Positions 5,749 through 44,561 of a DNA stretch of 64,000 bases are shown here, one piece after another (positions within the stretch are counted from its first letter, which is position 1; each line of letters opens with the position of its first letter). Below the pieces are notes generated by a model, which was given only the letters and a program-made list of their open reading frames with translations, had not been told where the DNA came from and did not search any database. Location of the stretch: assembly GCA_951812325.1 (NCBI GenBank), contig OX638294.1:1278859-1342858 (forward strand), written 5' to 3'. A program made the translations under genes and the position numbers. This DNA comes from an uncultured Thermoanaerobaculia bacterium. GTDB taxonomy: Bacteria; Acidobacteriota; Thermoanaerobaculia; Multivoradales; Multivoraceae.

Positions 5749-5760
5749 CCACTACCTCCT

Positions 5761-18558: not shown

Positions 18559-18575
18559 AGTCAGGGTCAGGGGCG

Positions 18576-22195: not shown

Positions 22196-22257
22196 TCGCC
22201 GGGCGCGCCTGCGGTCTCCTTGGCTCGCACGGCTACGACCCGCTACGCTCGCGCCAA

Positions 22258-28600: not shown

Positions 28601-29977
28601 GAAGGCGGCGCCTTCGGCCTGATCGCCACGAACACGATCGCCCAGGGCGACACGCGCTCGACCGGATTGCGCTTCATCTGCAAGCACGGCGGGGAGATCT
28701 TCCGCGCCCGAAGACGGGTCAAGTGGCCCGGTCTGGCCGCCGTCGTCGTCAGCGTCGTGCATCTGCACCGCGGTCCCTGGCATGGTCCGCGGATGCTCGA
28801 CGGCGTGACGCAACCGAAGATCACGGCCTTCCTGTTTCACCGCGGCGGGCACGAGGATCCTGCGCGGCTCACCGAGAACGCCGGCAAGAGCTTCCAGGGC
28901 AGCATCGTCCTCGGCATGGGTTTCACCTTTGACGACACGGACACGAAGGGCGTGGCGACGCCGCTTGCCGAGATGAACCGCCTGATCGAACAGGACCCGA
29001 AGAACCGGGAGGCGATCTTCCCGTACATCGGCGGTAAAGAGGTCAACGCCAGTCCGATTCACGCTCACCATCGGTACGTCATCAACTTCCACGACTGGCC
29101 GCTGCGCCGCGAGGACCGCGGTGACCGAAGCCAGCGCTGGGCAACCGCTCCGAAGGAGCAACGCAAACAGTGGCTGCGCGAAGGAGGCGTGCCGGTCGAC
29201 TATCCGGATCCGGTTGCGGCGGACTGGCCGGAGCTGCTGGCGATCGTTGAGGAGCGGGTCAAGCCTGAGAGAGCCGAGAAGAACGACGCCGTGGCCAGGA
29301 GGCTATGGTGGCAGTTCCTTCGGCCCCGCCCGGAACTCCAGGGTGCCATCGCCGGCCTCGACCGCGTGTTGGCGATCTCGCGCGTCACCCAGCATGTGGG
29401 TTTCGCCTACCTACCAGCCGGCAAGGTCTATGCCGACCGTCTCATCATCTTCCCCTCCCCCACCCACGCCGCGTTCTGCGCCCTCCAGTCCCGCCCCCAC
29501 GAACTCTGGGCGCGCTTCTTCGGTTCCTCTCTGGAGGACCGACTCACGTACACGCCCTCCGACTGCTTCGAGACCTTCCCCTTCCCAGAGAACTGGGAGA
29601 CTCACTCCGACCTTGAAGTCGCCGGCGCCGCGTACCACGGTTTCCGAGCCGACCTGATGCTCCGGAGCGACGAGGGCCTGACGAAGACGTACTACCGCTT
29701 TCATGACCCCGAGGAGCAGAGTTCGGGCATCACCCGGCTCCGCGAGCTCCACTCGGCCATGGACCGTGCCGTCCTCGCCGCCTACGGCTGGACCGACATC
29801 GGCACGGCCTGCGAGTTCCTCCTCGACTACGAGATCGACGAAGAGACCTGGGGCAAAAGGAAGAAGCCCTACCGCTACCGCTGGCCCGACGAAGTCCGCG
29901 ACGAGGTGCTCGCCCGCCTCCTCGAACTCAACGCCCAACGCGCCGCCGAGGAGAAGCGCAGCGGTTCCCGCCGATGA
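25694..29977 (+). CDS. drmMI: Eco57I/PglX-type N6-adenine DNA methyltransferase, DISARM drmMI-like (1427 aa)
   Basis: HYTPRELTEPIV (motif X), ILGLKVCDPAMGSGAFLVE (motif I), NCLYGVDRNAVAVDLAKLSLWL, VVGNPPFAGK (motif IV NPPF), C-terminal KKPYRYRWPDEVRDEVLARLLELN typical of this family. Confidence 0.85.
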   Translation: MPKLDANTRAHLEWLGFVRPTGLVVSPPALNKAGAVLERADREGQRLLRDAVSEREFKPGEGRQPWLPAFEDFARSVLGWRFSPEGYAGGSAAPIPDELSLHLPDCGETLRPDFAVRERSPNEDGSRWQLLVQTVEPGLSFDRAVSGAGKLEASPHSRMERLLRAKAVPAGLLFNGRALRLVSAPRGETSGWTDFQLADMLLVAGRPICTALRLLLNEQRLLALPRRQRLAALLADSRKYQNEVSERLAEQVLHALYELLRGFQAAHDASRKELLGDQLREDPGGIYHGLLTVVLRLVFLLYAEERDLLSEEATFVRHYSLASLHDRLRADAALHPDTMDQRYGAWAQLLALFRMIHNGAAAADLRLPPRHGVLFDFDRFPFLEGRPPGSVAQNHERVAAPLVSDGTVHRALEKLLVLDGDRLSYRALDVEQIGSVYETMMGFRLERAEGPSCAIKPAKRHGAPATVNLAALLEKPVDRRVRWFRERTDRRLTDKAAKALRNARTIDELHAGLDRVIDRAATPDLAPKGHMILQPSDERRRSGSHYTPRELTEPIVRDTLEPILDRLREQAAGSAGQEPATPPDLSAPAEHGSRVRSPRHQGPATAPDLSARGPSGPHPAPTTKAPRPEQILGLKVCDPAMGSGAFLVESCRQLGDALVDSWHAHDAAPPIPPDEDEAVHARRLVARNCLYGVDRNAVAVDLAKLSLWLTTLARDHPLTFLDHALRHGDSLVGLAPEQIQAFHWKGKEKRFQAGIETTWIREQVEKALRLRRAIQEARDDTPDWVLRDRLDQAEDELARVKRNGDLVVAAFFERQKPGEREALRRSFAAELQFETASGSGGKPSSRPGEDEQASVPASVSGHSGSSGSIRASPSNAISTIGWLEEFRNGDPPLAPFHWAIEYPEVFLLEERENSGFDAVVGNPPFAGKNTIGNANVPGYKAWLKQLHEESHGNADLVAHFFRRAFTLVREGGAFGLIATNTIAQGDTRSTGLRFICKHGGEIFRARRRVKWPGLAAVVVSVVHLHRGPWHGPRMLDGVTQPKITAFLFHRGGHEDPARLTENAGKSFQGSIVLGMGFTFDDTDTKGVATPLAEMNRLIEQDPKNREAIFPYIGGKEVNASPIHAHHRYVINFHDWPLRREDRGDRSQRWATAPKEQRKQWLREGGVPVDYPDPVAADWPELLAIVEERVKPERAEKNDAVARRLWWQFLRPRPELQGAIAGLDRVLAISRVTQHVGFAYLPAGKVYADRLIIFPSPTHAAFCALQSRPHELWARFFGSSLEDRLTYTPSDCFETFPFPENWETHSDLEVAGAAYHGFRADLMLRSDEGLTKTYYRFHDPEEQSSGITRLRELHSAMDRAVLAAYGWTDIGTACEFLLDYEIDEETWGKRKKPYRYRWPDEVRDEVLARLLELNAQRAAEEKRSGSRR

Positions 29978-30121
29978 GAAGCCGGGACCGCCCCAGGTCC
30001 AGGGCCGATCACGTCGCGGGCCCGCTTTGCAGTCACCGCTGCCCGTGTGAGAGAGTTGTCCGCAGCAAGCCGACCGGCCCACCAGCGCCGACTCCTCCCC
30101 CACCTTCCCGCGCACCCCGCC

Positions 30122-31117
30122 ATGACTAGCGGCAAGCTCTTGCGCCAACTCATCGTCTCGGGCGCCGATGGCGACCTCGCTGCATTCCGTGCCGCCGCGG
30201 ACGACGTGATCGCCGACGAGCGGCAGAAGCAACACCACCTCCTGGCGAACGACCTCGAGTCCATTCTCTATGGCCGCACTCTCGCTCCCACGTCGCCTGG
30301 CCTGCGGAGGCTCGCCCAGGCGGTGCCCGAAGATCGAGAGCGTGGTTTGGCCTTGCTGTCACTGCGCGAGCCCGTCCGTGGAATGGAGGACGTTGTTCTC
30401 TCAAGCTCAAACCGCACCATCGTCCGGGCCGTCCTTCACGAGCAGAACCGCGAGGAACTGCTTCAAGCGCACGGGCTCCGGCCCGTCGATCGTCTCCTGT
30501 TGTGCGGACCGCCCGGCTGCGGCAAGACGCTGACCGCAGAGGTCATCGCAAATGAGCTCGGCAGACCTCTCGCCATCGTCCGGGTCGACAGCGTCGTGTC
30601 TTCTTTCCTCGGTGAAACCGCAGCCAATCTACGTCGCGTCTTTGACTTCATCGAAACGACGCCGACAGTAGCAGTCTTCGACGAGTTCGACGCCTTGGGC
30701 AAGGAGCGGGACGACTCCTCGGAACACGGCGAGCTGCGCCGGGTTGTCAACGCGGTGCTGCAGATGCTTGACGCATACGACGGCCGCAGCCTCATCGTCG
30801 CCGCCACCAATCACCAATCCATGCTCGACTCGGCCGTCTGGCGCCGTTTTGAGGAGATCCTCTATCTGAGGCTGCCGACCGCAACGCAGATTCGGGAGCT
30901 CCTCCGCGTCAAGCTGCGCGGCGTACGCCGAGCCTTCGACATCGACACGGTCGCCGTTGAGTCGCTCTTCCCTAATAGTACGCACGCCGACGTCGAGCGC
31001 GTGCTTCGCCGAGCCGTCAAGGAAATGGTCCTGAGCGGTGAAGGTCGCCTTGGCCTGAACCACATCCGCGGGGCCGTGCGCCGAGAGAAGGCGCGGCGTC
31101 AACCTGGGCGCATTTGA
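30122..31117 (+). CDS. ietA: AAA+ ATPase, IetA-like (332 aa from ATG 30122)
   Basis: LLCGPPGCGKT Walker A, VAVFDEFDAL Walker B, AATN sensor 1. Immediately followed by an S8 peptidase gene (IetAS architecture). Confidence 0.75.
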   Translation: MTSGKLLRQLIVSGADGDLAAFRAAADDVIADERQKQHHLLANDLESILYGRTLAPTSPGLRRLAQAVPEDRERGLALLSLREPVRGMEDVVLSSSNRTIVRAVLHEQNREELLQAHGLRPVDRLLLCGPPGCGKTLTAEVIANELGRPLAIVRVDSVVSSFLGETAANLRRVFDFIETTPTVAVFDEFDALGKERDDSSEHGELRRVVNAVLQMLDAYDGRSLIVAATNHQSMLDSAVWRRFEEILYLRLPTATQIRELLRVKLRGVRRAFDIDTVAVESLFPNSTHADVERVLRRAVKEMVLSGEGRLGLNHIRGAVRREKARRQPGRI

Positions 31118-31126
31118 GTCAGGCCA

Positions 31127-33490
31127 TTGCAGCAGCGCCTCTTCGACCACACACAAATGCGCCCGCACCTGCGCCTCAACCGAGAGCGACCAACCACGGA
31201 GCGCCGCCGGCCTGGCGGATTCCCTCCTTCCCCGCCTCCGCCACAGGATCCGCAGGTCCACGGAGCCTCGCTGCACCAGAAACTGCGTTCCGCACGCGAA
31301 AAGGCCGCCGCGGCTCTCGGCGGCTACGACCAGCGACGATTGATCAAGCTCAAGCTGGCAACGCAAGTATCGCCGGAGGCTCTCGCCCGGATTTCGCCCG
31401 GGATGGAGGCAGTAAGCCAGGAGGGCGAGAAGCTGATTCTCTACTTTGCGACCGACGATGCGCTGGAGACGTTTGAGGCGAAACTCTCAAGTCTCAGCCA
31501 GGGCGAGGCGGTAACGCGCAAGGACCTGCTCTACGCTCTCAGCGACATCGATCATTGGAGCGAGGACGACCGCACTGGCCGGAGCCTCAAGCAGCACGGT
31601 CTGCCACCGGGCAAATCGGTAACGCTCGATGTGGAGCTATGGCCGTTGGACAGCCCGCAGGCCCCAACGCTTGCCACTTTCTCCGAGTGGTTGAAGGAAC
31701 GTGGCGGCAAGGTCCTGGACAAGGTGAAGAAGGCCTACCTTGTGCTGTGCCGTGTCCGTTGCGACCGCGCTGTTGCCAGCGACCTGCTTCGACACCGGGA
31801 CGTTCGCACAATCGAACTTCCTCCGCGTCTGGCCCTGCCCCGGGAGATTCTCAGCGCCGATGTCCAGAACATTCCCGAGGTTGAAGCGCCACTGACCGAT
31901 GCACCCGCTATCGTGGTTCTCGACTCCGGCCTCGCTTCCGGACACCCTCTGCTCGCACCCGCCGTGGGAGATTCCCAGAGCTTCCTGCCGGGCAGGTCGG
32001 CAGCCGACGAACACGGCCACGGTACGCTGGTCTCGGGCATCGCCCTGTACGGCGACGTAGCGAAAGGACTGCGCGCCCAGAACCTTGTCCCGGAACTGCG
32101 TCTCTTCAGCGGACGGATACTGGACGAAAAGAACCAGAGCAACGAGCCCCTCGTCGAGAACCAGATCGAAGACGCGGTCCGCTACTTCGCGGATCACTAC
32201 GGCTGCCGCGTGTTCAACCTCTCCTACGGCGATCCCAACAGGTCCTACGAAGGCGGCAGGATCACGGGCCTTGCTGTGACGCTGGATGCGCTGAGTCGAG
32301 AACTCGGTGTGCTGTTCGTTGTACCCACCGGCAACTACGAAGGCGGCCCTGCGGGGCCGGGAGACTGGCGAGAAGACTACCCTGACTATTTGTCTGAGTC
32401 GAGTGCCCGCCTTCTCGACCCGGCCCCCGCCTTGAATGCCCTCACCGTCGGAAGTCTGGCACGTTGGGAGAAAACGATTCAGGCCGAAAGCTATTCAGAC
32501 GATCCCGCCTACCAGCCCATAGCGCGAACCGACGAACCGTCCCCGTTTACCAGAAGCGGCCCTTCGGTGAGAGGCGCGATCAAACCGGATCTCGTCGACT
32601 ACGGTGGCAATCGAGCCGTTGATCTGCGGACGGGAAGCGAACTCACCGTCGGCAGGGCCGGCATCGGCGAACGCTCGACATCTCGCGACTTCGCGGCCGG
32701 CTCGCCATTCGCCGAGGGCTGCGGAACAAGCTTCGCCGCTCCGCGAGTCGCGCATGTTGCCGCGCGCCTGCTGAGGGAGCTTCCAGGCGCAAGCGCCAAT
32801 CTCTGCCGCGCTCTCCTCGTCGCGCACGCGCGGACTCCGCTCGCCTGCGCTGAGCTCTTCTCAGATGACCGCGCCGCCCTCCGCCGAATCACCGGCTACG
32901 GTCTGATCGACCGCTCCGCTCTCTACCGTTCGCCCGACGATTGCGTCTCGCTCTGGGCGACGGAGTCGATGACCAACAATCGGCACCACTTCTACGAGCT
33001 GCCGGTCCCGGATGAGTTCTGGTCTTCAGGTCGCCGCGAGCGGAGGATCACCGTTGCTCTTGCCTACTTTCCCGCTGTGAGGACGACGCGCATCGACTAC
33101 CGCGCGGCGAAAATCAGCTTCAAGTTGGTACAGGCTCAGTCGCTCGACGAAGTCGCCAGCTGGTTCAGCGCGGTGGAAGACAATCCGGGAGCAGCACCGG
33201 TTGCCGAGCTGCCCACGGGAAGGAACATCACGGAGCAAAACCGCTCAAAGGGAACAGTGCAGGCTTCGAGTTGGACCTTTACTGTAGCGAACCGATCCAG
33301 AAAGGAAGGAGCCTGGTTCGTGGTCGTCACGCGCAACGATCCCGCGTGGGGGCAGAACATCTCCAACGAACATGAAGAATACGCTCTCGTAGCCACGATC
33401 GCGGATCGGCAATTTGCCGAGGCGCGACTCTATTCGCAGATCCAGGTCAGACTCCGACAACGCGCTCGAGCTCGAGCGAGCGACCGTTGA
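31127..33490 (+). CDS. ietS: Subtilisin-like S8 serine peptidase, IetS-like (787 aa)
   Basis: Catalytic triad motifs VVLDSG (Asp), HGHGTLVSG (His), GTSFAAPRVAH (Ser). Large N- and C-terminal non-catalytic domains. Confidence 0.8.
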   Translation: MQQRLFDHTQMRPHLRLNRERPTTERRRPGGFPPSPPPPQDPQVHGASLHQKLRSAREKAAAALGGYDQRRLIKLKLATQVSPEALARISPGMEAVSQEGEKLILYFATDDALETFEAKLSSLSQGEAVTRKDLLYALSDIDHWSEDDRTGRSLKQHGLPPGKSVTLDVELWPLDSPQAPTLATFSEWLKERGGKVLDKVKKAYLVLCRVRCDRAVASDLLRHRDVRTIELPPRLALPREILSADVQNIPEVEAPLTDAPAIVVLDSGLASGHPLLAPAVGDSQSFLPGRSAADEHGHGTLVSGIALYGDVAKGLRAQNLVPELRLFSGRILDEKNQSNEPLVENQIEDAVRYFADHYGCRVFNLSYGDPNRSYEGGRITGLAVTLDALSRELGVLFVVPTGNYEGGPAGPGDWREDYPDYLSESSARLLDPAPALNALTVGSLARWEKTIQAESYSDDPAYQPIARTDEPSPFTRSGPSVRGAIKPDLVDYGGNRAVDLRTGSELTVGRAGIGERSTSRDFAAGSPFAEGCGTSFAAPRVAHVAARLLRELPGASANLCRALLVAHARTPLACAELFSDDRAALRRITGYGLIDRSALYRSPDDCVSLWATESMTNNRHHFYELPVPDEFWSSGRRERRITVALAYFPAVRTTRIDYRAAKISFKLVQAQSLDEVASWFSAVEDNPGAAPVAELPTGRNITEQNRSKGTVQASSWTFTVANRSRKEGAWFVVVTRNDPAWGQNISNEHEEYALVATIADRQFAEARLYSQIQVRLRQRARARASDR

Positions 33491-33775
33491 CCAATATGCC
33501 GCCCTCAACCTCGCCCTTCCCGTTCAACCGCCACCGTCTCGCCGCCTCTGATCTTCTCGGAGTCCGTTCCGGCACAACATCGAGGCCCGGGCCGACAAGC
33601 GCGGGCAAGTGACGGCGTTCATTTTCGACAGCCTGACCGTCATGCCGCGCCCCGTCCCCCACAGCGAACTCAAGAGGCTGGATTGCGTCGGTCCCGCGAA
33701 CTACGTTGCGGCAGAACCGATTTCACACGATCAACTCCTGAGGATCGTTCAGGCGGGCTTCGGAGAATCGGGCTC

Positions 33776-34264
33776 ATGATCGACATCCTCATGTCGATCA
33801 AGCCGCCGTACGTCGACATGATCGTCTCCGGCTCCAAGACGGTCGAGATCCGGAAGCGAGCTGTCCGGGTACCAGCCGGAGCAAGAATCTGGATCTACGC
33901 AACCAGTCCACGGCGGCAGGTAGTCGCATCCGCCCGGCTCGAAGAAGTCGCCCTCGACACGGGGGGCGAGATCTGGCGCACCTTCGGCGACCGGGCCGGC
34001 ATCGACCGCCTCGACTTCAACGCCTACGTTGGAGACAGCAGACTCGTCGCCGCACTATCCCTGACCGACGTCACCGCACTCGCCGCGCCACTATGCCCTC
34101 GCAGCGAGACGCCGGCATTCCGCCCGCCGCAGTCCTACTCGTTCCTTCGTGATGCCGAACTTCTGGCAGCCTTGGAGGCAAGGCATAGCACAGAGCGTTC
34201 AGCAGACGAGAACCAGATCAGTCCTCCGGCGCAACCAACCGAAACGGCCTTCGCAACCCCGTAG
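33776..34264 (+). CDS. ASCH (PUA-like) domain protein, ~162 aa from ATG 33776
   Basis: MIDILMSIKPPYVDMIVSGSKTVEIRKRAV...IWIYAT matches the ASCH beta-barrel N-terminus. Confidence 0.6.
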   Translation: MIDILMSIKPPYVDMIVSGSKTVEIRKRAVRVPAGARIWIYATSPRRQVVASARLEEVALDTGGEIWRTFGDRAGIDRLDFNAYVGDSRLVAALSLTDVTALAAPLCPRSETPAFRPPQSYSFLRDAELLAALEARHSTERSADENQISPPAQPTETAFATP

Positions 34265-34482: not shown

Positions 34483-35577
34483 CTAATGAAACAAGGCCTC
34501 CTGCTTCGGGAGAAGCGACAGTGAGCCTCCGCGCCGCCTGAGCCGCTTTTGCTGCTTTAGTTCCGCCTCTACATCTCCAAGGTGCTTCCACCTCCAGATC
34601 TTCGAGCGCAGCTCCTCCTTCAGGACGTCCCTCAAGACCGGCCCCGCCTGGAGCCTGGCCACCAACCACTGACGCAGCGGCGCCAGATCGGGCTTCTCTT
34701 CGATCAAAAGGAACTGGTTCGGGTTCTCGGATCGCCGCACGCTCATGCTGCCGCCGGGGCAAACCGTCCAGACACACTCCTTCATCAGGTCCCGTCCGTC
34801 ATCGTGATTCGTCAGATGGAGCAGAAAGAAGCGCACCGCATCGCCACCCGAGACCATCCGCACATGGGTCCACCACTTCGCGCCTACTCGATCAGCCAGC
34901 AGCTTCGCGCCCTGGTCGGCCCTCTCAACCATCGTTTCGCCCCGGATGTTCCGCCACGCATCGCCTCCGAAGAGCCGGTCGAGATTCTCGGCCTGACCGT
35001 GTCCAGCTTTGAGCTCCTGGTGCATCGCCATGTCGAGTTCGCGCCACATCACGTTGACGAAGAGCTCGACGCGCTCAAACTCCATGATCTCCGCGAGCAG
35101 GTCGCCCGGCAAACTGAAGCCATACGGATCCACGAAGAAAAAGGCAGGCGCCATTTGTTGACCCGCTGACTTCAGGGCATCGACCCCCCGGCGCAACACC
35201 TCGAACGCGTCGCCCGGCTCGACATCGACGACGATCCGGCGGGGCAGATCTTCAATCCGCTCAACCTCTCCCCTCAGCTCGGACGCATTCTGTTCATCCA
35301 GCTCCAGAAACACGAACCGGAACTCGGAGTTCTCCAAGAGCTGGTCTCTCGCCGTGTGGTCAAGCAGCGTCCTCAGCGCCACGAGTGGCGAACCGGGATT
35401 GTCGCCTGCATAGCTACCACGCCCGGCGTGAGTGTCGAAGTACACGACTTTGCCGGACCACAAGCCGAGTTTGGGAAACCAGGCTTTCAGGTAGGCGTCA
35501 ATCAGCTCGTGCTTGACCTGCTGGAAAGGACCGTAGCCTTTCCAATGATCCGGCCGTGGATCGCCGACTCCGTTCAC
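34483..35577 (-). CDS. Three-Cys-motif partner protein TcmP (full length, ~364 aa), probable GTG start at 35575-35577, 12 nt after the upstream gene's stop
   Basis: N-terminus HWKGYGPFQQVKHELIDAYLKAW...VVYFDTHAGRGSYAG and FFFVDPYGF motif. Located directly downstream of the Gp37/Gp68 gene (the pairing that defines this family). Confidence 0.7.
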   Translation of the reverse strand: MNGVGDPRPDHWKGYGPFQQVKHELIDAYLKAWFPKLGLWSGKVVYFDTHAGRGSYAGDNPGSPLVALRTLLDHTARDQLLENSEFRFVFLELDEQNASELRGEVERIEDLPRRIVVDVEPGDAFEVLRRGVDALKSAGQQMAPAFFFVDPYGFSLPGDLLAEIMEFERVELFVNVMWRELDMAMHQELKAGHGQAENLDRLFGGDAWRNIRGETMVERADQGAKLLADRVGAKWWTHVRMVSGGDAVRFFLLHLTNHDDGRDLMKECVWTVCPGGSMSVRRSENPNQFLLIEEKPDLAPLRQWLVARLQAGPVLRDVLKEELRSKIWRWKHLGDVEAELKQQKRLRRRGGSLSLLPKQEALFH

Positions 35578-35590
35578 AGCCCTCGGGTCC

Positions 35591-36316
35591 TCAGTTCGCC
35601 GGGAACTCGTCGTAAGTCCTACCCTTGAGCAGGCGCCCATTCAGATGCTTCCGCGGCCCTCCCCACTGCTTGAAGAAGAAGGGGACGTCATCTCGCCGGC
35701 ACTGAAGCAGGACATTGATCACCCACGCTTCCAGCATGGGCCGCGCTCCGGGACCGCTCTCGCCGCCGACGATGACCCAGTCGATGCCCGTCAGGTCGAA
35801 CTTCTCCAGATCCTCAAGGAGCGGTTCGATTGAGGCAAAGCGAACCGCTGCCGGCGTCTGCCGTAACGCCTGCAGCCGCGGCAAGCCCTGCCGTCGGTTC
35901 TCGACGCTCACTCCAAACCAGACGTTCGGCAACTCACCCATCCAGGAAAGAGGCCCCACAAGAAGCTCGTGCATTCGCTCGTGTCTCTTCGTGAGCACCT
36001 GGTAGGTGTGCCGCTGGACTTCGCTCATCACCCGGCCCACCTCGGCGATGTAGCTCACGGGAACCTGCGGATGGAAGAGGTCGCTCATCGAGTTCACGAA
36101 CACGCGGCGAGGCAGACGCCAGCGACGCGGCTGATCGAGCTTGGCCGGTACCAGGCGAAGGTCGAAACCCTGCTCGAAGGGGTGCCTCGGGACGCCACGG
36201 AAGCGCTCCGAGAAGCGCTCTGCGTAGCAATGTGCGCAGCCTGCACTGACCTTCGTGCAGCCGAGCACCGGGTTCCAGGTCGCGTCGGTCCATTCGATCG
36301 GACTCTTCTCTGACAT
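35591..36316 (-). CDS. Three-Cys-motif protein of the phage Gp37/Gp68 family (PF07505/DUF5131), copy B, 241 aa
   Basis: MSEKSPIEWTDATWNPVLGCTKVSAGCAHCYAERF...FFFKQWGG. Full-length paralog of copy A. Confidence 0.85.
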   Translation of the reverse strand: MSEKSPIEWTDATWNPVLGCTKVSAGCAHCYAERFSERFRGVPRHPFEQGFDLRLVPAKLDQPRRWRLPRRVFVNSMSDLFHPQVPVSYIAEVGRVMSEVQRHTYQVLTKRHERMHELLVGPLSWMGELPNVWFGVSVENRRQGLPRLQALRQTPAAVRFASIEPLLEDLEKFDLTGIDWVIVGGESGPGARPMLEAWVINVLLQCRRDDVPFFFKQWGGPRKHLNGRLLKGRTYDEFPAN

Positions 36317-36483: not shown

Positions 36484-36790
36484 TCAGTGCCCGAGCCTTC
36501 TCGACAGGGAGTCCCGCTCGACCGTCAACTCCCCGATCCTCGCGTGCGAGTCCCTGATCCTTTCCTCGTGGTCACGGCGACGCTCCGGCCCCGGCCGAGA
36601 AGGTCTCCTGCATCCCCTCGACCGCCGTCCCCTTCCAACTGCCGACCTGGTCCGGGTGAACGCCGTGCCGCGACGCAATCGCCGAAATCGGCTTCCCCTC
36701 GCGCAGCGCCTCAAGCGCCACCTTCGACTTGAAAGCCGCCGTGAACTTCGGACGCTTCCTCTTCCTCCTGGCTACTCCTCTCGGTTGAGG
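36484..36790 (-). mobile_element. Remnant of an IS3-family transposase orfA (HTH part), frameshifted, no start codon and no orfB
   Basis: Minus-strand translation RPKFTAAFKSKVALEALREGKPISAIASRHGVHPDQVGSWK... then frameshift, then ...ERIRDSHARIGELTVERDSLSRRLGH (IS3 OrfA C-terminal leucine-zipper motif LHAKIGQLTVENDFL). Confidence 0.6.
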
Positions 36791-36910
36791 AGTACACCTT
36801 AGCCACCTGTCCAGTTCTTCGGGACCACCTCATCGTTCAGGTTCGGACGCGAAGAGTGAGGTGGTGAGCGCGGTTGACGCCCGCCGCACCAATGTGTGAC
36901 ATTCGTGCAC

Positions 36911-37150
36911 ATGGAACAGATCGGCATTCGCGAACTCCATCTGAAGACCGGCGAGTGGGTGCGGCGAGCCGCCAGAGGACGGGGCGTCGTCGTCACGGAG
37001 CGTGGCCGCCCGGTGGCTTCGCTTGTACCGTTCCGCGACGACGCACTGGGGGTTTCCTTCGCCGACCGTCAACTGCTGCCCGAGTTCGAGGCCCTGCCGG
37101 AGATCCGCGGCGACTCGGCCGCCGGTATCTCGGAGGACCGGGACCGCTAG
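36911..37150 (+). CDS. Phd/YefM-family type II antitoxin (79 aa)
   Basis: MEQIGIRELHLKTGEWVRRAARGRGVVVTERGRPVASLVPF classic Phd/YefM N-terminus. Stop TAG overlaps the GTG of the downstream PIN fragment (taGTG). Confidence 0.8.
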   Translation: MEQIGIRELHLKTGEWVRRAARGRGVVVTERGRPVASLVPFRDDALGVSFADRQLLPEFEALPEIRGDSAAGISEDRDR

Positions 37151-37268
37151 TGGCGTACTTCGACACCGCCTATCTGGTCAAGTGCTACGTGAAGGAGGAA
37201 GGGTGGGACAGCGTCCGAGCGTTGGCTGCCGAGCGCGGATGGGTTGCCTGCTCGGTGTTTGGGCGCCC
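37150..37268 (+). pseudogene. Truncated VapC (PIN-domain) toxin, N-terminal ~35 aa only
   Basis: VAYFDTAYLVKCYVKEEGWDSVRALAAERG matches the VapC N-terminus including the first catalytic Asp (FDT). Downstream sequence in this frame is low-complexity and ends at 37374 (75 codons, versus ~130 for an intact PIN toxin). Confidence 0.5.
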
Positions 37269-37397
37269 GACGCTCTCAAGGTCGACCTCGTCGGCCCCGG
37301 CGCCGGCCACGAACTCGCTCGCGAGCGGCTGCCCGCAAGCGAAGCGCCCTCGAAGTGGTCTCGCCGCTTCCTGATTCCATCCCGCACGCCGCCGGTT
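37269..37397 (+). pseudogene. Decayed 5' fragment of a second drmA allele (43 codons)
   Basis: Frame +1 of 37002 reads DALKVDLVGPGAGHELARERLPASEAPSKWSRRFLIPSRTPPV, compared with DrmA residues 20-63 EAIELDLIGPWRGHELARERLPIFEAPSNWYLTGFLIPTGTPPE (about 24/43 identical; nucleotide identity ~70%). Confidence 0.55.
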
Positions 37398-37591
37398 ACG
37401 CGGGCTCAACTCCTGCCGCCAACCGTCAGACAGCCATCGTTGCTGCCCCCCAACGACTAGACTCGCCGCATGAGCGGGCGAGACCTCAGGAGCCCCAAGC
37501 CGACTGTGAGGCGCCTGGTTCACCGCACCGCCTCCAGTCAGTCGGTCGTCAGAGCCCGGCGGTCCCGCCAGCGCGGCCCCAGAGAGCCAGC

Positions 37592-38797
37592 GTGACCGCC
37601 GACCGCCGCCTGTTGACTCGCGTTGCGCTCCGCAACTACAAGAGCATCGCCGCATGCGACGTGTCACCAGCGAAGCTGTGCTTCCTCGTGGGTCCGAACG
37701 GCTCCGGCAAGAGCAACTTCCTCGACGCGCTTCGGTTCATCGCCGAGTCTCTTCGGTCTTCGATGGATCAGGCGCTGCTCGCACGCGGAGGCATCAACGA
37801 GGTGCGGCGGCGCTCTGGTGGCCACCCGACGCACTTCACCATCCGTGTCGAGTTCGCCCTCGACGCATCGCGAGGCCACTATGCGTTCACTGTCGGGTCC
37901 AAACGCCAGGCCCGCTACCAGGTCCAGCGCGAAGAGTGTCTCGTCGTACCGACGAACGGGCAGAGCGCTCACTTCTTCAAGGTCGAGAGCGGGCGGGTTA
38001 CCAAGACGACCCTCTCGCCAGCGCCAGCGGCACTGCCCGATCGCCTGTACCTTGTCAATGTCTCCGGTCTTGAGGCGTTTCGGCCCGTCTACGACGCCCT
38101 CTCGAGGACTGGCTTCTACAACCTGAACCCGGCAGCCATACGCGACCTTCAGCCGCCCGACACGGGCGAACTCCTCAAGCGGGACGGGAGCAACATCGCA
38201 AGTGTCCTGGCCAACCTCGCCACCAGTTCGCCTCCGTCGATGCGGAGGATCGAGGAGTACCTCGGGACCGTCGTTCCTGGCATGGCGGGCGTCGGTCGTC
38301 ATCGGCTCGGTCCCAGAGAGACGCTCGAGTTCCGGCAGGAGGTGCGCGGTGCCGAGCATCCCTGGCGCTTCCTCGCCAACAACATGTCCGACGGAACGCT
38401 TCGCGCACTCGGCCTGCTCGTCGCGCTCTTTCAGGGCGCGAGCAACGGCGCCGCAGGGCCCGGACTGGTGGGCATCGAAGAGCCGGAAGTCGCGCTTCAC
38501 CCCGCAGCCGTGGAAGTCCTCATCGATGCGCTGCTTGACGCTGCTGAACACGCCCAGATACTTGTCACGAGCCACAGCACCGAACTGCTCGATCACCCGG
38601 AAATTCGGGACGACTCCATCCTTGCCGTGGTAGCAGAGCACGGCGAGAGCCGCATCGGTCCGCTGGACGAGGTCGGGCGGTCGGCGTTGAAGAAGCACCT
38701 CTTCACCGCCGGCGAACTGCTCAGAATGCACCAACTCGATCCGGATCCAGTGCTCTCGAAACCCGGGCAAATCAGGCTCTTCGGCCCCGAGCCCTGA
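37592..38797 (+). CDS. Solitary AAA_21/ABC-type ATPase (OLD/PtuA/AriA-like), ~401 aa from GTG 37592
   Basis: LTRVALRNYKSI...FLVGPNGSGKSNFLDALRFI Walker A, LVGIEEPEVALHP Walker B, ILVTSHS D-loop/H-loop. No nuclease partner gene adjacent. Confidence 0.75.
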   Translation: MTADRRLLTRVALRNYKSIAACDVSPAKLCFLVGPNGSGKSNFLDALRFIAESLRSSMDQALLARGGINEVRRRSGGHPTHFTIRVEFALDASRGHYAFTVGSKRQARYQVQREECLVVPTNGQSAHFFKVESGRVTKTTLSPAPAALPDRLYLVNVSGLEAFRPVYDALSRTGFYNLNPAAIRDLQPPDTGELLKRDGSNIASVLANLATSSPPSMRRIEEYLGTVVPGMAGVGRHRLGPRETLEFRQEVRGAEHPWRFLANNMSDGTLRALGLLVALFQGASNGAAGPGLVGIEEPEVALHPAAVEVLIDALLDAAEHAQILVTSHSTELLDHPEIRDDSILAVVAEHGESRIGPLDEVGRSALKKHLFTAGELLRMHQLDPDPVLSKPGQIRLFGPEP

Positions 38798-38937: not shown

Positions 38938-41900
38938 ATGAGCGAACCGAACAACCACGACGCTGCGGCCGTGACGTCTCTCGATGTCCGCCGGACCCTC
39001 GTCGAAGCGATCGAACTCGACCTCATCGGCCCATGGCGAGGTCACGAGCTTGCGCGGGAGCGGCTGCCGATCTTCGAGGCGCCATCCAACTGGTACCTCA
39101 CCGGCTTCCTGATTCCGACCGGAACGCCGCCGGAACTGAGCCGGGACGACGAGCAGGACGACGGCGGGCCTGACGAGACGCCCGAGCGACCCGGCCTCGC
39201 CGAGGAATCGACGGAGGGCCGGATGGCAGCGAAGAAGCTCTTCTTCCCTTCCTCGATGGGGCTGAGCTTCCTCGCAACCGCGGACAGCCGGCTCGATGTC
39301 TCCGTTCGCTGGGGCGACTACGAACTGGTCGCAACCGCCACCGATGCTGTGGAAGGCGACGGCGGCAACGACAAGGCCGGGGCGCAATACTGGCAGCGGA
39401 GCGCCAGGGAGGAAGCCGTAGAGATCGCCCCGCAGACGGCGGAGCGGCCTGTCCACGACGTGCCCGGCTCGGGCGGGCTGAGGCTTCACGTCGAGCAGAG
39501 GCCCATCTCCGAGATCGCCTCCATCCCCGAAGGCACGCGGGCTGTCAGCGTGTTCCTCGTGAACGAGCGGGAGCCTGCGACTTCGCTCCAGGACACCGAG
39601 CCGACCTACGCGTTCCAGGCCGAAGTCGAGATCCGCAGCGAACAGCCGTTCGTGCCGAGACCGGACCCACGCTCGGCGGAGACCGATGACTGGGATGAAC
39701 AGGTCGCGGCCCTTCACTACCTGGACGCCCCGAGCTACGCCACCGGTCACAACGTCGGCGCCACCTGGGACGTCGACAGCGACGGGAAGTGCCGGAAGAT
39801 CCGCACGACCTGGATGCCCCGGGCGGAGGTCGAGAAGACGGAGACCAGCCAACCGGACGGGGTCGACCTGTCGATGGACCGGCTCGGCCAGCTTGCCGGC
39901 GCCGACGATGCGGACAGGACCCTGCGACCGCTCGTCGCCGCTTACCGCGAGTGGATCAACGAACAGCGCAGGGCGCTCGAGGAAGTTCCCGAAGAGCACG
40001 CGGAGACCGCGGTCGAACTCCTCGATCAGGCTGAGTTCGCCGCCTCGCGGATGGAGCGAGGGATCGCGACGCTTCAAGGCGACGAACAGGCGCTCGACGC
40101 CTTCCGCCTGGCGAATCGCGCCGTGGCCCAGGCTCTTCGGCGCCGAACCCCTGAGGTCTTCGAAGATGCGGCGCCCCGATGGCGGGCATTCCAGCTCGCC
40201 TTCATCCTGCTGAACCTCGCGCCGCTCGCGGACCCCGCCGACCCGCACCGGGAGATGGTCGACCTGCTCTTCTTTCCCACCGGCGGCGGCAAGACGGAGG
40301 CCTACCTGGGTCTCGCCGCCTTCGCGATCGTGCTGAGGCGGCTCCGGAACCCGGAGGCGGGCGGGCGGGCAGGCGCGGGCGTCTCTGTTGTCATGCGCTA
40401 CACGCTGAGGCTGCTGACCCTCGATCAACTCTCGCGCGCCGCGGGCCTGATCTGCGCGCTGGAACTGGAGCGGGCCGACGCGCCCGAGCGCTACGGCGAG
40501 TGGCCGTTCGAGATCGGCCTGTGGGTCGGCAGGGCGGCGACACCGAACCACATGGGGCGAAAGGGCGCCGAACCGCCCGGTTCCGCCCGCCAGAAGGTGC
40601 GGCGCTTCCAGGCGAAACCCTGCTACGAGCCGTCACCCGTCCCCATTGAGGACTGCCCCTGGTGCGGTACGAAGTTCAAGCCCGGCTCCTTCACGCTGCA
40701 ACCGAACGACGACACGCCGACCAACCTGCGCGTGATCTGCGCAAACTGGGAGTGCGAGTTCTCCGGCGACCGCGCGCTCCCCATCGTCGCCGTCGACGAG
40801 CCGTTGTACCGCCGCCTGCCCTGTTTTCTCGTTGCCACGGTGGACAAGTTCGCGGCCCTGCCGTGGGAGGCCCGCGCCGGCGCGCTCCTCGGCGGCGCCG
40901 ACCGACACGATGCGGAGGGCTTCTACGGCGCGGCGGCGCCGAGCCGGGGCCGGCCGCTGCCCTCGCCCCTGCCGCCGCCCGACCTCATCGTCCAGGACGA
41001 ACTCCACCTGATCTCCGGACCCCTGGGATCGATGGCCGGCCTCTACGAGACGGCGGTCGAGGCGCTGGCGCTCCGCGGTTCCGGCAGCCGCGGCGCGAAG
41101 CCGAAGATCGTCGCCTCGACCGCGACCACCCGGCGGGCGCAGGAACAGATCCGGGCCCTCTTCGGCCGTCAGATGACCCGCGTCTTCCCGCCGCCCGGGC
41201 CCTCGCGGCGCGACTCGTTCTTCTCCCAGGTCGTGCCGGCGAGCATGAAGCCGGCTCGGCTATACCTCGGCATCGCGTCGCCGGGCAGGAATGCGAAGGT
41301 CCAGATGCGGCGCGTTCTGCTGCCGCTGATGGCGGCGGCGCAGCAGGCCTTCCGGAACGCGGGCGGCCACGACAACGAGAACAACGCCGCCGACCCGTAC
41401 ATGACGGTGCTTGCCTACTTCAACAGCCTTCGCGAACTCGGCGGTGCGCGGCGCATCGTCGAGGAGGAGGTCCAGAACACGCTGGGCCGCTACGGAGCAA
41501 GGCGCAGACTGAACCAGGAGAGGAGGTACTTCCGCGATCGCGGGCGTCTCTACGAGCCGCTGGAGTTGACCTCCCGGGTCTCGACGGCCCAGGTTGCCGC
41601 TGCGCGACGGCGGCTTGGTCAGCCTTTCCATGCGACGGACCGGGTCGACGTGGCCCTGGCGACGAACATGATCTCCGTCGGCCTCGACATCCAGCGACTC
41701 GGGCTCATGGTCGTCATGGGTCAGCCGAAGACGACCGCCGAGTACATCCAGGCGACCAGCCGGGTCGGCCGCGCAGACGCGAAGCCCGGTCTCGTCATCA
41801 CCCTGCTCAACGCCCACAAGCCGCGCGACCGCTCCCACTACGAACGCTTCCGGCACTACCACGAGACCTTCTACCGCGCGGTCGAGGCTGGAAGCGTCAC

Positions 41901-42360
41901 GCCGTTCGCGGCCCGGGCGTTGGACCGGGGAATGGCCGGAACCCTCGTCGCGCTCGCTCGGCACGCGGAACCGTCTCTGACGCCGGCCACCGCTCCGCCA
42001 GGGCTCGCCGAGGTCCGCGCGCAGCTCGAGGCACTGCTCCTCGATGCGTTCTCCGAGCGGCTCAGCCGCCAGAACATGCCGGAAGCCGAGCGGGAAGAGA
42101 AGCTCGGCTCGGTTCGTCGGCGCGTAGGCGACCTGCTCGACTCCTGGCAGTACGTCGTGGACGACTATCGGGACACCGGCACCGCGGTGAAGTACCAGCA
42201 GTACGAGCGGGAGCAGGGCAAACCACTGCTCCGCGAGATGTTGGACACGGACTTCGAGTCACCCCATCACAAGAAGTTCCGAGTCAACCGCTCGCTTCGT
42301 GACGTGGAGCCCCAAGTGAACCTGTTCATCACGAAGCCGGCCGGCGGCGGAGCGGATTGA
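38938..42360 (+). CDS. drmA: DISARM drmA-like helicase (1140 aa)
   Basis: Helicase motif I LLFFPTGGGKTEAYLG, motif II VQDELHLISGP (DExH), zinc-ribbon DCPWCGTKFKP, helicase C motifs (QATSRVGRADAKPGLVI). 4-nt overlap with the following DUF1998 gene. Confidence 0.8.
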   Translation: MSEPNNHDAAAVTSLDVRRTLVEAIELDLIGPWRGHELARERLPIFEAPSNWYLTGFLIPTGTPPELSRDDEQDDGGPDETPERPGLAEESTEGRMAAKKLFFPSSMGLSFLATADSRLDVSVRWGDYELVATATDAVEGDGGNDKAGAQYWQRSAREEAVEIAPQTAERPVHDVPGSGGLRLHVEQRPISEIASIPEGTRAVSVFLVNEREPATSLQDTEPTYAFQAEVEIRSEQPFVPRPDPRSAETDDWDEQVAALHYLDAPSYATGHNVGATWDVDSDGKCRKIRTTWMPRAEVEKTETSQPDGVDLSMDRLGQLAGADDADRTLRPLVAAYREWINEQRRALEEVPEEHAETAVELLDQAEFAASRMERGIATLQGDEQALDAFRLANRAVAQALRRRTPEVFEDAAPRWRAFQLAFILLNLAPLADPADPHREMVDLLFFPTGGGKTEAYLGLAAFAIVLRRLRNPEAGGRAGAGVSVVMRYTLRLLTLDQLSRAAGLICALELERADAPERYGEWPFEIGLWVGRAATPNHMGRKGAEPPGSARQKVRRFQAKPCYEPSPVPIEDCPWCGTKFKPGSFTLQPNDDTPTNLRVICANWECEFSGDRALPIVAVDEPLYRRLPCFLVATVDKFAALPWEARAGALLGGADRHDAEGFYGAAAPSRGRPLPSPLPPPDLIVQDELHLISGPLGSMAGLYETAVEALALRGSGSRGAKPKIVASTATTRRAQEQIRALFGRQMTRVFPPPGPSRRDSFFSQVVPASMKPARLYLGIASPGRNAKVQMRRVLLPLMAAAQQAFRNAGGHDNENNAADPYMTVLAYFNSLRELGGARRIVEEEVQNTLGRYGARRRLNQERRYFRDRGRLYEPLELTSRVSTAQVAAARRRLGQPFHATDRVDVALATNMISVGLDIQRLGLMVVMGQPKTTAEYIQATSRVGRADAKPGLVITLLNAHKPRDRSHYERFRHYHETFYRAVEAGSVTPFAARALDRGMAGTLVALARHAEPSLTPATAPPGLAEVRAQLEALLLDAFSERLSRQNMPEAEREEKLGSVRRRVGDLLDSWQYVVDDYRDTGTAVKYQQYEREQGKPLLREMLDTDFESPHHKKFRVNRSLRDVEPQVNLFITKPAGGGAD

Positions 42361-44204: not shown

Positions 44205-44561
44205 CGATGTACCGGGCCGCACAAAACAGCAATCCAGGAGGTTGCCGGATCCGCCTGCCTTCTCGCGGAAACCGCCTGGCCGCAAACCGACAGGCGTGAA
44301 GGACCAGGCATTCAACGCTCAGGTCGAACTTCCGGCGCATTTCCGGAACTCGCTCGCGGCCGCGCTGGACGCCGGTTTGCTCCGGTTCGACTTCACCGCG
44401 GCTCCAGGTAGAGTTCCGCCACGAAGTTGTCCCGGTCGTCGAGTCGTTCGAGCGGCGTCACGGCCGCTACGCCAACAGCCCGGCCGCCGCCGACGCGCGC
44501 CGCGAACGGAGGGAAGGCCGCGGGACCGGCCCGGAACACGACCAGGGAACAAAGGAGAACG

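Follow-up and report, generated by a model that had tools for sequence, protein, structure and literature searches.

A DUF5131-TcmP gene pair embedded in a split DISARM operon: a candidate two-enzyme nucleic-acid base-modification module

Introduction

What does a small three-cysteine protein do together with a methyltransferase-like partner when the genes of both lie within a defence operon? The question is raised by a locus of an uncultured Thermoanaerobaculia bacterium (GCA_951812325.1, contig OX638294.1), of which a stretch of 64,000 nucleotides (positions 1,278,859 to 1,342,858, hereafter the window) was analysed. A preliminary description had presented the pair as a candidate defence or mobile module, possibly restriction-like. 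The defence and mobile contexts on which that proposal drew are found here and elsewhere, but the idea itself had already been listed: DUF5131 (PF07505, 'Gp37/Gp68') and TcmP (TIGR04474) constitute the defence candidates PDC-M30/M41, derived from 'guilt-by-embedding' and belonging to a set of 145 PDCs that the authors describe as untested (Payne et al., bioRxiv 10.1101/2024.01.29.577857). The window pair has the same two families in the same adjacency (A model E 3e-18) and the same kind of source context, i.e. genes that lie inside BREX, DISARM or type I restriction-modification (R-M) systems, and it differs not in kind but in lying on the strand opposite to its host system, beside an insertion sequence (IS) remnant. 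It is an additional member of an already catalogued candidate cassette and an unsurprising one, being a textbook case of the DISARM-embedded context behind the original listing. No functional study of DUF5131/PF07505 or TcmP/TIGR04474 was found in the searched literature, and the biochemistry that the two proteins could perform is the subject of this analysis.

Results

The gene pair and its families

Both reading frames lie within 34483-36316, as previously described, on the minus strand, which had been left unstated (Table 1). The 241-aa DUF5131 protein matches Pfam PF07505 over residues 5-239 of 241 (E 5e-94, 314.8 bits, cut-off 28.9), and its quoted three-Cys motif, GCTKVSAGCAHCYAERF, is present with C20, C27 and C30 in the arrangement C-x6-C-x2-C. 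The TcmP-like partner of about 364 aa does follow directly after a 13-nt gap and matches NCBIfam TIGR04474 with 156.8 bits against a curated cut-off of 53. The mechanical ORF of TcmP encodes 385 aa (34483-35640), whereas a GTG at 35577, preceded by GAGGG, yields 364 aa, and exactly this 364-aa protein is found in the protein collection as P0001. Because the spacer between the two genes measures 13 nt, the sequence implies that they are probably co-transcribed. Among the PADLOC models, TcmP matches PDC-M30A (E 2.8e-18) and DUF5131 matches PDC-M30B (E 1.8e-98) and also PDC-M41B, the B models being hit at E ~1e-100. The PF07505, TIGR04474 and context HMM scores cannot have arisen by chance. The claim of a conserved two-gene cassette is borne out by the PADLOC entries PDC-M30/M41 and by the definition of TIGR04474, whose name ('three-Cys-motif partner') derives from adjacency to PF07505 and from which the window pair shows no differences.

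Table 1. Features of the window that bear on the DUF5131-TcmP pair (positions in the window).
Feature	Positions	Strand	Remarks
Second DUF5131 gene	17824-18558	+	Intact, 244 aa; tblastn 100% to P0143; PDC-M41-type cassette
Truncated short TcmP-like partner (PDC-M41A type)	18576-18815	+	Retains roughly residues 1-50 with motif I VDAFAGTG; internal deletion thereafter
DcuC transporter	20810-22195		Basis for DrmD starting after it
DrmD (class-1 DISARM, left half)	~22300-25635	+	PADLOC E 7e-300, ORF residues 444-1551
DrmMI (left half)	25694-29977	+	PADLOC E 0
IetA	30047-31117	+	PADLOC/Pfam
IetS	31127-33490	+	PADLOC/Pfam
ASCH protein (PDC-M11B)	33683-34264	+	PADLOC/Pfam
TcmP gene (TIGR04474)	34483-35577	-	364 aa, GTG start; predicted RlmJ-like class-I methyltransferase domain and C-terminal winged helix
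C-terminal winged-helix region, residues ~299-355	34513-34683	-	Predicted from model secondary structure; homologues match Pfam PF22560 (GMT-like wHTH)
Motif IV FFFVDPYGF (D150-P-Y-G)	35116-35142	-	Position of RlmJ DPPY
Methyltransferase motif I DTHAGRG (D48-G54)	35416-35436	-	Putative SAM-binding loop; family consensus D-x-F-A-G-x-G
Intergenic spacer with GAGGG	35578-35590	-	13 nt, DUF5131 stop to TcmP GTG; read from sequence
DUF5131/PF07505 ('Gp37/Gp68') gene	35591-36316	-	241 aa; predicted radical-SAM-fold enzyme
GGESG, residues 184-188	35753-35767	-	Glycine-rich/acidic, after last barrel strand; invariant in DUF5131 alignment
Three-Cys motif CTKVSAGCAHC (C20-x6-C27-x2-C30)	36227-36259	-	Presumed [4Fe-4S] ligands; invariant in 63 homologues
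IS3-type transposase OrfA remnant	36575-36769	-	HTH_Tnp_1 E 4e-10; directly upstream of pair, same strand; frame broken downstream
Phd-type antitoxin	36896-37150	+	Pfam match below cut-off
PIN-like remnant	within 36896-38797	+	Pfam/PADLOC
HEC-01A ABC ATPase	37244-38797	+	Pfam/PADLOC
DrmA (DISARM right half)	38938-42360	+	PADLOC E 1.5e-275
DrmB (right half)	42357-44204	+	PADLOC E 8e-81

A split DISARM operon with embedded cargo

IetA, IetS, the IS3-type OrfA remnant and the Phd-type antitoxin were all located as the expected neighbours of the pair, and what had been called a defence island is more exactly a class-1 DISARM operon interrupted by embedded cargo genes. DrmD, DrmMI, DrmA and DrmB are all present in the window, and about 9 kb of cargo, comprising IetAS, the ASCH protein, the DUF5131-TcmP pair, toxin-antitoxin and IS remnants, and HEC-01A, separates DrmMI from DrmA. 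The GC content of the embedded cargo (30047-34264) is 0.61-0.65, compared with 0.68-0.70 in the flanks. DrmC (PLD nuclease) was not found, the ORF that follows DrmB (44412-44930) having no Pfam or PADLOC match. The ORF at 20977-25635 was rejected as wholly DrmD, its first ~440 codons overlapping the DcuC gene in another frame. The pair is encoded on the strand opposite to DISARM and beside the IS remnant, an arrangement that passive insertion fits as well as function does.

Predicted fold and motifs of DUF5131

The model of DUF5131 is a partial (beta/alpha)6 TIM-barrel in which the three invariant cysteines lie in a loop after beta-1, as expected of the cluster loop in a radical SAM fold. The canonical radical SAM motif CX3CX2C is absent and is replaced by CX6CX2C. 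Variant cysteine spacings are known within the radical SAM superfamily; the non-canonical spacing weakens the assignment, and membership would still be possible. Model confidence is also lower in the cluster loop (pLDDT 59-80). The best structural match is spore photoproduct lyase, a DNA-repair radical SAM enzyme that flips the DNA lesion, from which DUF5131 differs in its cysteine spacing and its much smaller size (241 aa), with an identity of only ~11%. Further fold matches of DUF5131 include RlmN, Cfr and TYW1, and those of the two proteins taken together include TYW1, TYW2, Trm5 and TYW4. DUF5131 shows weak homology (E 1e-21) to TIGR04471, 'radical SAM mobile pair protein A', with which it shares the concept of a mobile two-gene pair around a radical-SAM-like protein; however, the partner family there is unlike TcmP, and at 77.2 bits against a cut-off of 355 DUF5131 is not a member of TIGR04471.

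Predicted fold and motifs of TcmP

The methyltransferase-like fold that had been suspected from FFFVDPYGF is recovered in the model, which is of class-I methyltransferase type and has RlmJ as its nearest relative by two independent methods; the motif is present, and FVDPYGF occupies the position of the RlmJ DPPY motif IV. The nearest solved relatives in the fold search are RlmJ (23S rRNA m6A2030) and Trm1 (tRNA m2,2G26). The predicted RlmJ-like fold is accompanied by K-H, motif I, GSPL and motif IV in the sequence, and the motif order is the same as in RlmJ, where motif I reads LDTHAGAG and motif IV LIDPPYE. The preliminary description had allowed that the partner family might lack any conserved catalytic motif, yet motifs I and IV are both conserved in an alignment of 146 TcmP sequences: D48 in 142/146 (the others have E), G52 in 146/146 and G54 in 142/146, and D150 in 146/146, P151 in 145/146, F/Y152 in 144/146 and G153 in 140/146. 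Motif IV of the D-P-[Y/F]-G or DPPY type is typical of exocyclic-amine methyltransferases, and the tetrapeptide of TcmP is nearer the DPFG of Trm1 than DPPY.

The window's TcmP itself has no Pfam match, including to the RlmJ family, at E <= 1. When all PDB chains were searched with either protein, or with a TcmP profile built from 44 sequences, nothing significant was returned (RlmJ only at E 1.5), and hhalign of the 146-sequence alignment against E. coli RlmJ aligned motif I only, with a probability of 77%. Because sequence searches recover motif I only, the relationship between TcmP and RlmJ rests on fold and motif order, not on sequence statistics. Several differences separate the two: TcmP shows no significant match to the sequence family of RlmJ (Pfam DUF519), lacks the helical insertion that separates motif I from GSPL in RlmJ, reads DPYG where RlmJ reads DPPY, carries ~170 extra C-terminal residues including the wHTH and, in contrast to RlmJ, is mobile and paired with a radical-SAM-like protein. 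The winged helix is predicted from the secondary structure of the model (H299-310, H316-323, H330-342, E346-349, E352-355); among homologues, PF22560 scores just under the cut-off in P0004, P0038 and P0071 and is precomputed for many others.

A second, decayed cassette

The window contains another DUF5131 gene, at 17824-18558, which matches PF07505 with E 3e-96 and 322.1 bits. The two DUF5131 copies are 80% identical, and they are not a recent duplication because blastn finds no match between them. The second gene was ruled out as a solo copy, as a truncated PDC-M41A partner follows it. When the 277-282-aa partners from three other loci (L087, L089 and L090) were compared with this remnant by tblastn, residues 1-55 matched at 76-80% identity, followed by residues ~231-248; against PDC-M41A these partners score E 1e-63 to 1e-65, and against the TcmP profile E 3e-17. 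In a further locus, L088, the partner is split and DUF5131 is intact.

Distribution and neighbourhoods

DUF5131 adjoins a TcmP relative in 70/80 species-level genomes, in three gene orders, and a single-polypeptide fusion exists. At least 573 species-level genomes, from many phyla and including one archaeon, carry TcmP relatives; at 50% identity, the relatives make up ~2,000 clusters. Of the two partners, DUF5131 is the more conserved. Comparison of the 150 immediate neighbours of the 80 loci with PADLOC and Pfam revealed no conserved third gene, the commonest being DrmA with five occurrences, and no recurrent nuclease family that could supply the linked nuclease of an R-M system. In most of the 80 loci the genes flanking the pair are not recognisable as defence genes, and housekeeping genes occur among the neighbours. 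The possibility, raised earlier, that such pairs are uniformly housekeeping is therefore answered in part: the neighbours are heterogeneous, with housekeeping genes included, and the association with defence, seen in the DISARM embedding, is real but not uniform. At least five other species show the same embedding in DISARM; in L033, which belongs to a distant lineage, the pair lies cleanly co-oriented between DrmMI and DrmA, and in L009 it lies directly upstream of DrmA. Three of nine tblastn 'DISARM' co-occurrences (L057, L075 and L081) were discounted, their 27-30% matches being to generic domains of helicases or methyltransferases. The pair is patchily distributed and mobile, with 38 plasmid records, IS remnants or transposases beside it in L001 and L002 also, and decayed copies in the source genome. 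Phage records number 181 for DUF5131 against 12 for TcmP, and about 170 phage genomes carry DUF5131 without TcmP. Because DUF5131 is so much more widespread, its activity in general cannot depend on TcmP. Some phage records label DUF5131 'RNA methyltransferase', a label that is unverified, and in Gordonia phages TcmP lies downstream of the repressor within the lysogeny module, not among the replication genes.

Discussion

Proposed mechanism and alternatives

The gene pair, its motif conservation, linkage and embedding are established here, together with the folds as obtained from models, and we consider the chances about even that they represent a two-enzyme SAM-dependent module for nucleic-acid, probably DNA, base modification in phage or mobile-element conflict; the Fe-S/SAM chemistry, the polynucleotide substrate, the choice between DNA and RNA and the anti-phage effect are what we infer. 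Such a self-contained, horizontally mobile module would chemically modify a base of a polynucleotide, most likely DNA. TcmP would bind the target via its C-terminal winged helix and offer an RlmJ/Trm1-type transferase site, SAM-dependent and base-flipping, whose D-P-[Y/F]-G motif IV would suit exocyclic-amine methylation. DUF5131 would be a minimal radical-SAM enzyme in which a [4Fe-4S] cluster on C20/C27/C30 cleaves a second SAM; radical reactions at the same nucleotide, or at one adjacent to it, would then give a hypermodified rather than a simply methylated base. A precedent for N-methylation followed by radical-SAM elaboration is provided by Trm5 and then TYW1 in the wybutosine pathway. 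This pathway and the radical-SAM steps in phage DNA hypermodification follow the same logic, with a class-I SAM transferase and a radical SAM enzyme acting successively on a single purine within a polynucleotide, and the analogy is drawn from established knowledge, with no specific homology beyond the superfamily level. As cargo, the module occupies defence hotspots, in this window between the DISARM genes DrmMI and DrmA, as well as prophage lysogeny regions and plasmids, and it would either mark resident DNA or disable incoming nucleic acid. Counting against a base-modification module are the action of the closest solved TcmP relatives, RlmJ and Trm1, on RNA, the presence of DPYG instead of DPPY with sequence support for RlmJ confined to motif I, and the non-canonical cysteine spacing and less confident cluster loop of DUF5131. 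The much wider spread of DUF5131 than of TcmP, the many loci whose adjacent genes are not of a defence type, and the opposite-strand position next to an IS remnant weigh on the same side.

The RNA activity of those relatives, the presence of RlmN, Cfr and TYW1 among the fold matches of DUF5131 and the labels on some phage records would also suit an RNA-directed module that modifies rRNA or tRNA, in the host or during infection, and confers translation-level immunity or tolerance or acts as a mobile accessory RNA modification. We regard this as rather unlikely: the labels are unverified, the patchy distribution, mobility and decayed copies in the same genome speak against it, and the predicted winged helix and the DISARM, prophage and plasmid contexts favour DNA or conflict roles. 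A restriction-like role was part of the original proposal. In such a scheme TcmP would methylate the recognition sites in self DNA, and DUF5131 would serve as the 'restriction' subunit that causes strand breaks or lesions at unmethylated sites by radical hydrogen abstraction. This alternative draws on the combination of a methyltransferase-like DNA-binding partner with an enzyme whose closest predicted fold is that of a DNA-lesion-flipping radical SAM enzyme, on the R-M- and DISARM-type contexts, and on the single-polypeptide fusion, which recalls type IIG enzymes. In the decay of R-M systems, loss of the protective methylase is lethal. Here the pattern is the reverse, since DUF5131 outlasts its methyltransferase-like partner, and a restriction-like role for DUF5131 is disfavoured because the second cassette (17824-18815) keeps DUF5131 intact with a truncated partner; the split partner of L088 points the same way, as do the phage genomes with DUF5131 alone and the higher conservation of DUF5131, unlike that of restriction enzymes. 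A caveat to the decay argument is possible cross-protection by the TcmP at 34483-35577, which is intact in the source genome. Overall, we consider R-M-like immunity very unlikely.

The pair might alternatively have no part in host defence and be selfish or protective cargo of mobile elements, for anti-restriction DNA marking or DNA repair, that has gathered in permissive insertion hotspots. IS remnants or transposases adjoin it here and in two other loci, it runs opposite to the DISARM strand, whereas 96.7% of embedded genes are co-oriented (Payne et al., bioRxiv 10.1101/2024.01.29.577857), it occurs on plasmids and in phages, many loci have no defence neighbour, and the best structural match of DUF5131 is a DNA repair enzyme. 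Against this stand the co-oriented embedding in L033, the position directly upstream of DrmA in L009, the lysogeny-module location of TcmP in Gordonia phages, and correlative data from P. aeruginosa, where PDC-M30 occurs in 32/100 strains, 68.8% of which fall in the phage-resistant group (PMC10855318); on balance we judge it unlikely. Most improbable in our estimate is a Viperin-like small-molecule immunity in which DUF5131 would make an antiviral analogue from a free nucleotide, with TcmP either methylating the product or sensing infection.

Significance

The base-modification reading has a bolder form, which is possible if doubtful: the pair may represent a new class of epigenetic module for immunity or conflict, in which a base-flipping, RlmJ-like transferase passes a base of the DNA on to a minimal radical-SAM enzyme, giving an undescribed hypermodified base or a radical lesion on foreign DNA, and the TcmP-less DUF5131 of phages would bring the same chemistry to the phage side. 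If that were true, direct action on DNA in defence or anti-defence would have been shown for a radical-SAM enzyme for the first time. The cassette is common, and the structural assignment, as predicted from models, turns a 'DUF plus partner' into a concrete, testable biochemical hypothesis. Should the pair introduce a new modification into DNA or RNA, this would mean new chemistry in prokaryotic immunity and a function for a radical-SAM subgroup, and it would help to explain the 181 phage genomes that carry DUF5131.

The gene pair and its setting

The pair consists of two tandem genes on the minus strand (34483-36316), encoding a PF07505 protein, DUF5131, with the three-cysteine motif CTKVSAGCAHC (C20-x6-C27-x2-C30) and a downstream partner, TcmP. 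The preliminary description had given these coordinates, this motif and a partner of ~364 aa; ORF, Pfam and motif readings show it to be accurate, the strand alone having been omitted. The downstream mechanical ORF encodes 385 aa, and a start at GTG 35577, 13 nt past the DUF5131 stop codon and preceded by GAGGG, gives a 364-aa TcmP identical residue for residue to a member of a public protein collection (P0001). A Pfam scan of TcmP from the window returned zero matches.

The defence island, in which the pair had been placed between IetAS genes and an IS3 remnant with toxin-antitoxin genes, is confirmed by PADLOC and Pfam scans and is a class-1 DISARM operon split by ~9 kb of cargo. The pair runs on the strand opposite to DISARM, between an ASCH-domain protein and the IS3-type remnant, and GC is 0.61-0.65 across the cargo compared with 0.68-0.70 on both flanks. 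The 1552-aa ORF containing DrmD (20977-25635, +) overlaps a DcuC gene in a different frame; its first ~440 codons therefore lie outside DrmD, which puts the island's left edge near 22.2 kb. No DrmC/PLD gene was found in the locus by either scan, and the ORF after DrmB (44412-44930) has zero Pfam or PADLOC matches.

Within the cargo, no obvious PDC-M11A partner adjoins the ASCH protein and no TOPRIM partner (HEC-01B) adjoins the HEC-01A ATPase. The HMM match of the latter begins at ORF residue 121, so that the gene probably starts near 37600, and the N-terminal extension of the ORF overlaps a PIN-like remnant. This remnant, an apparent VapC/PIN toxin N-terminus downstream of the antitoxin (YFDTAYLVKCYV), has no Pfam match, and the toxin gene is probably truncated. 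The OrfA remnant immediately precedes DUF5131, co-oriented with it, and the remaining transposase is absent or frameshifted; it may be a trace of how the pair arrived, or an old insertion.

Features of the cassettes, the DISARM locus and its cargo (window positions unless another record is named)
Feature	Position	Strand	Details
Second DUF5131, intact	17824-18558	+	244 aa; 80% identical to first; found by tblastn
Remnant of short TcmP-like partner (PDC-M41A type)	18576-18815	+	~first 50 residues kept, then internal deletion
DcuC-family C4-dicarboxylate carrier	20810-22195	+	E 1.5e-86; GC3 0.93
DrmD	~22300-25635	+	left half of DISARM (PADLOC)
DrmMI	25694-29977	+	left half of DISARM (PADLOC)
IetA + IetS	30047-33490	+	first cargo genes
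ASCH-domain protein	33683-34264	+	cargo; PADLOC PDC-M11B, E 7e-29
DUF5131	35591-36316	-	241 aa; full-length match to Pfam PF07505/DUF5131, E 5e-94
IS3-family OrfA remnant	36575-36769	-	cargo; HTH_Tnp_1, E 4e-10
Phd/YefM-type antitoxin + PIN-like remnant	36896-37374	+	cargo; antitoxin 84 aa, below Pfam cut-off
HEC-01A-type ABC ATPase	37244-38797	+	last cargo gene; E 1e-159
DrmA	38938-42360	+	right half of DISARM (PADLOC)
DrmB	42357-44204	+	right half of DISARM (PADLOC)
Putative DUF5131-TcmP fusion P0075 (L003/L024, contig_66315, Acidobacteriota MAG)	10001-11905 of L003		634 aa, one gene; single sequence
TcmP + DUF5131, temperate Gordonia phage ThankyouJordi (L004)	4293-6871 of MK801727.1		TcmP annotated 'methyltransferase'

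Folds and active sites

The motif FFFVDPYGF had been taken as a hint of a methyltransferase-like fold in TcmP. This is borne out by an AlphaFold2 model (pLDDT 92.2, pTM 0.90) based on an alignment of 146 TcmP sequences pooled from two homology searches, for which Foldseek independently ranked RlmJ top and Trm1 second. TcmP shares its series of motifs, order included, with the sequence of E. coli RlmJ: VKH matches LKH, VVYFDTHAGRGSY matches FLYLDTHAGAGRY, GSPL is present in both, and FLELD, GDAF and FVDPYGF match LTELH, ADGF and LIDPPYE. TcmP lacks the helical insertion of RlmJ and has ~170 extra C-terminal residues, ending in a modelled winged helix; this region matches Pfam PF22560 in many homologues. 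Membership of the RlmJ family is not established by sequence statistics alone. A partner without a conserved catalytic motif would have counted against the preliminary reading; the active site is strictly conserved: K22, H23, G52, G62-S63-P64, D150 and E171 are invariant (146/146), position 92 is acidic in all 146 sequences, and conservation is >=96% for D48, G54, P151, an aromatic at 152 and G153. Because a catalysis-dead protein would lose this pattern, we predict catalytic activity for TcmP, as a SAM-dependent transferase of exocyclic-amine type.

Overall confidence is lower for the DUF5131 model (pLDDT 79), whose six-stranded barrel core is well predicted; the radical-SAM fold of this model agrees with the placement of the family by RadicalSAM.org in Megacluster-5-2, beside spore photoproduct lyase at 5-3 (PMC9477430). 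The three cysteines and GGESG are invariant in 63 homologues. Sequence and fold searches found no solved structure for either family.

Linkage, distribution and neighbours

The pair had been described as a recognised two-gene cassette, and so it proved, both by its PADLOC matches (PDC-M30 and PDC-M41, hit by both proteins) and by linkage. Scanning one genome per species, TcmP relatives occur in at least 573 genomes of Acidobacteriota, Planctomycetota, Gemmatimonadota, Chloroflexota, Actinomycetota, Bacillota, Proteobacteria and one Thermoplasmata archaeon. In 70 of the best 80 loci DUF5131 lies <=3.5 kb from TcmP (co-directional and upstream in 51, co-directional and downstream in 14, convergent in 5); contig ends interrupt three of the ten remaining loci. 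This adjacency surviving rearrangement, the co-divergence of the two proteins (Spearman 0.64) and one putative fusion (P0075) indicate that TcmP and DUF5131 function together. P0075 is surrounded by short stretches matching each of the four DISARM proteins, which suggests a degraded DISARM locus.

No conserved third component was found with PADLOC or Pfam among the 150 genes immediately flanking these 80 loci, which represent 142 different Pfam families, each occurring at most six times. Together, these observations make the cassette a self-contained, mobile unit. Among the flanks are DrmA (5), mad2 (3), DNA methylases, type I R-M genes, M78 peptidases and integrases, and DISARM embedding recurs in five loci (L006, L008, L009, L033, L034), most cleanly in a Gemmatimonadaceae genome (L033; DrmD-DrmMI-[DUF5131-TcmP]-DrmA-DrmB on a single strand). 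The flanks also hold gyrase, Y-family polymerase and peptidases; the association with defence genes suggested earlier is thus real, yet not uniform. Elsewhere the pair sits among RES-Xre, PIN and ImmA/IrrE genes on a Mycolicibacterium plasmid, and beside IS110 or IS66 elements and toxin-antitoxin genes in two further loci.

Few sequenced phages carry TcmP (12 of 50,697 records). DUF5131 occurs in 181 records, from Mycobacterium, Gordonia and Burkholderia phages, cyanophages, a haloarchaeal virus and a 595-kb uncultured phage; some records label it 'RNA methyltransferase'. The TcmP gene of Gordonia phages immediately follows the immunity repressor, in the same orientation, with an integrase adjoining; in ThankyouJordi DUF5131 is convergent with TcmP (4-nt end overlap) and the integrase is 1 kb off. 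The repressor/integrase region of temperate phages is the usual site of prophage-expressed defence genes.

Genes embedded in BREX, DISARM and type I R-M were the source from which Payne et al. (bioRxiv 10.1101/2024.01.29.577857) drew their phage defence candidates, 145 in all and untested by the authors' own statement; in their supplement PDC-M30 and PDC-M41 are two cassettes sharing family FAM_00989 with different partners. PDC-M30 is reported from 32/100 P. aeruginosa strains, 68.8% of them in the phage-resistant group, a correlative result (PMC10855318), and in S. meliloti TcmP adjoins Hna (PMC12445080). Neither family is the subject of a functional or biochemical study in the literature searched, and the pair in the window is a further instance of a catalogued, experimentally untouched cassette.

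A second, decayed cassette

The window holds a second cassette (17824-18815) in which DUF5131 is intact and its partner a remnant. Related genomes that share a neighbouring carboxylase gene with the window encode, after this DUF5131 subtype, a 277-282-aa protein (PDC-M41A, E 1e-63 to 1e-65; TcmP profile, E 3e-17), a short TcmP without the winged helix. It is intact in L087, L089 and L090, and split into two ORFs in L088, where DUF5131 is intact. In two independent cases, then, decay has struck the methyltransferase-like partner and spared the radical-SAM-like DUF5131, an asymmetry that argues against a toxin-like role for DUF5131. The carboxylase gene, a 1552-aa fused carboxyltransferase/biotin-carboxylase (7845-12503, -), is syntenic with the PDC-M41-type cassette in L087-L089; ABC-transporter genes between the two in the window indicate local rearrangement.

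Mechanism and significance

The best-supported model is a two-enzyme, SAM-dependent module for base modification of a polynucleotide, in which the TcmP winged helix would bind the target, a base would be flipped into the D-P-[Y/F]-G pocket, and DUF5131 would perform radical chemistry at the same site. Such chemistry has precedents in Trm5 and TYW1, where a purine is N-methylated and then elaborated by a radical-SAM enzyme, and in the radical-SAM steps of phage DNA hypermodification. RNA is a serious rival substrate, the nearest solved relatives of TcmP being RNA enzymes, but DNA is favoured by the affinity of DUF5131 to spore photoproduct lyase, the TcmP winged helix and the R-M, DISARM and prophage contexts.

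Folds, active site, linkage and DISARM embedding support the hedged initial reading of a defence or nucleic-acid-modification module, but not its restriction-like part. A system in which TcmP methylates protectively and DUF5131 serves as the radical 'nuclease' is disfavoured because the partner decays while DUF5131 stays intact, many DUF5131 genes occur without TcmP, and DUF5131 is the more conserved protein in 50 of 59 pairs. A viperin-like action on a small molecule, suggested by fold-level similarity as its sole basis, seems very improbable. Alternatively, mobile elements may carry the pair as passive or anti-restriction cargo, particularly in the window, where it is antisense to DISARM and beside an IS remnant.

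Our analysis assigns both proteins at the level of fold, shows the TcmP methyltransferase active site to be strictly conserved, quantifies the linkage of the two genes, and identifies the decay asymmetry that speaks against a toxin-like DUF5131. The instance in the window is ordinary for its class; that class is widespread and of unusual biochemistry, and can now be tested directly.
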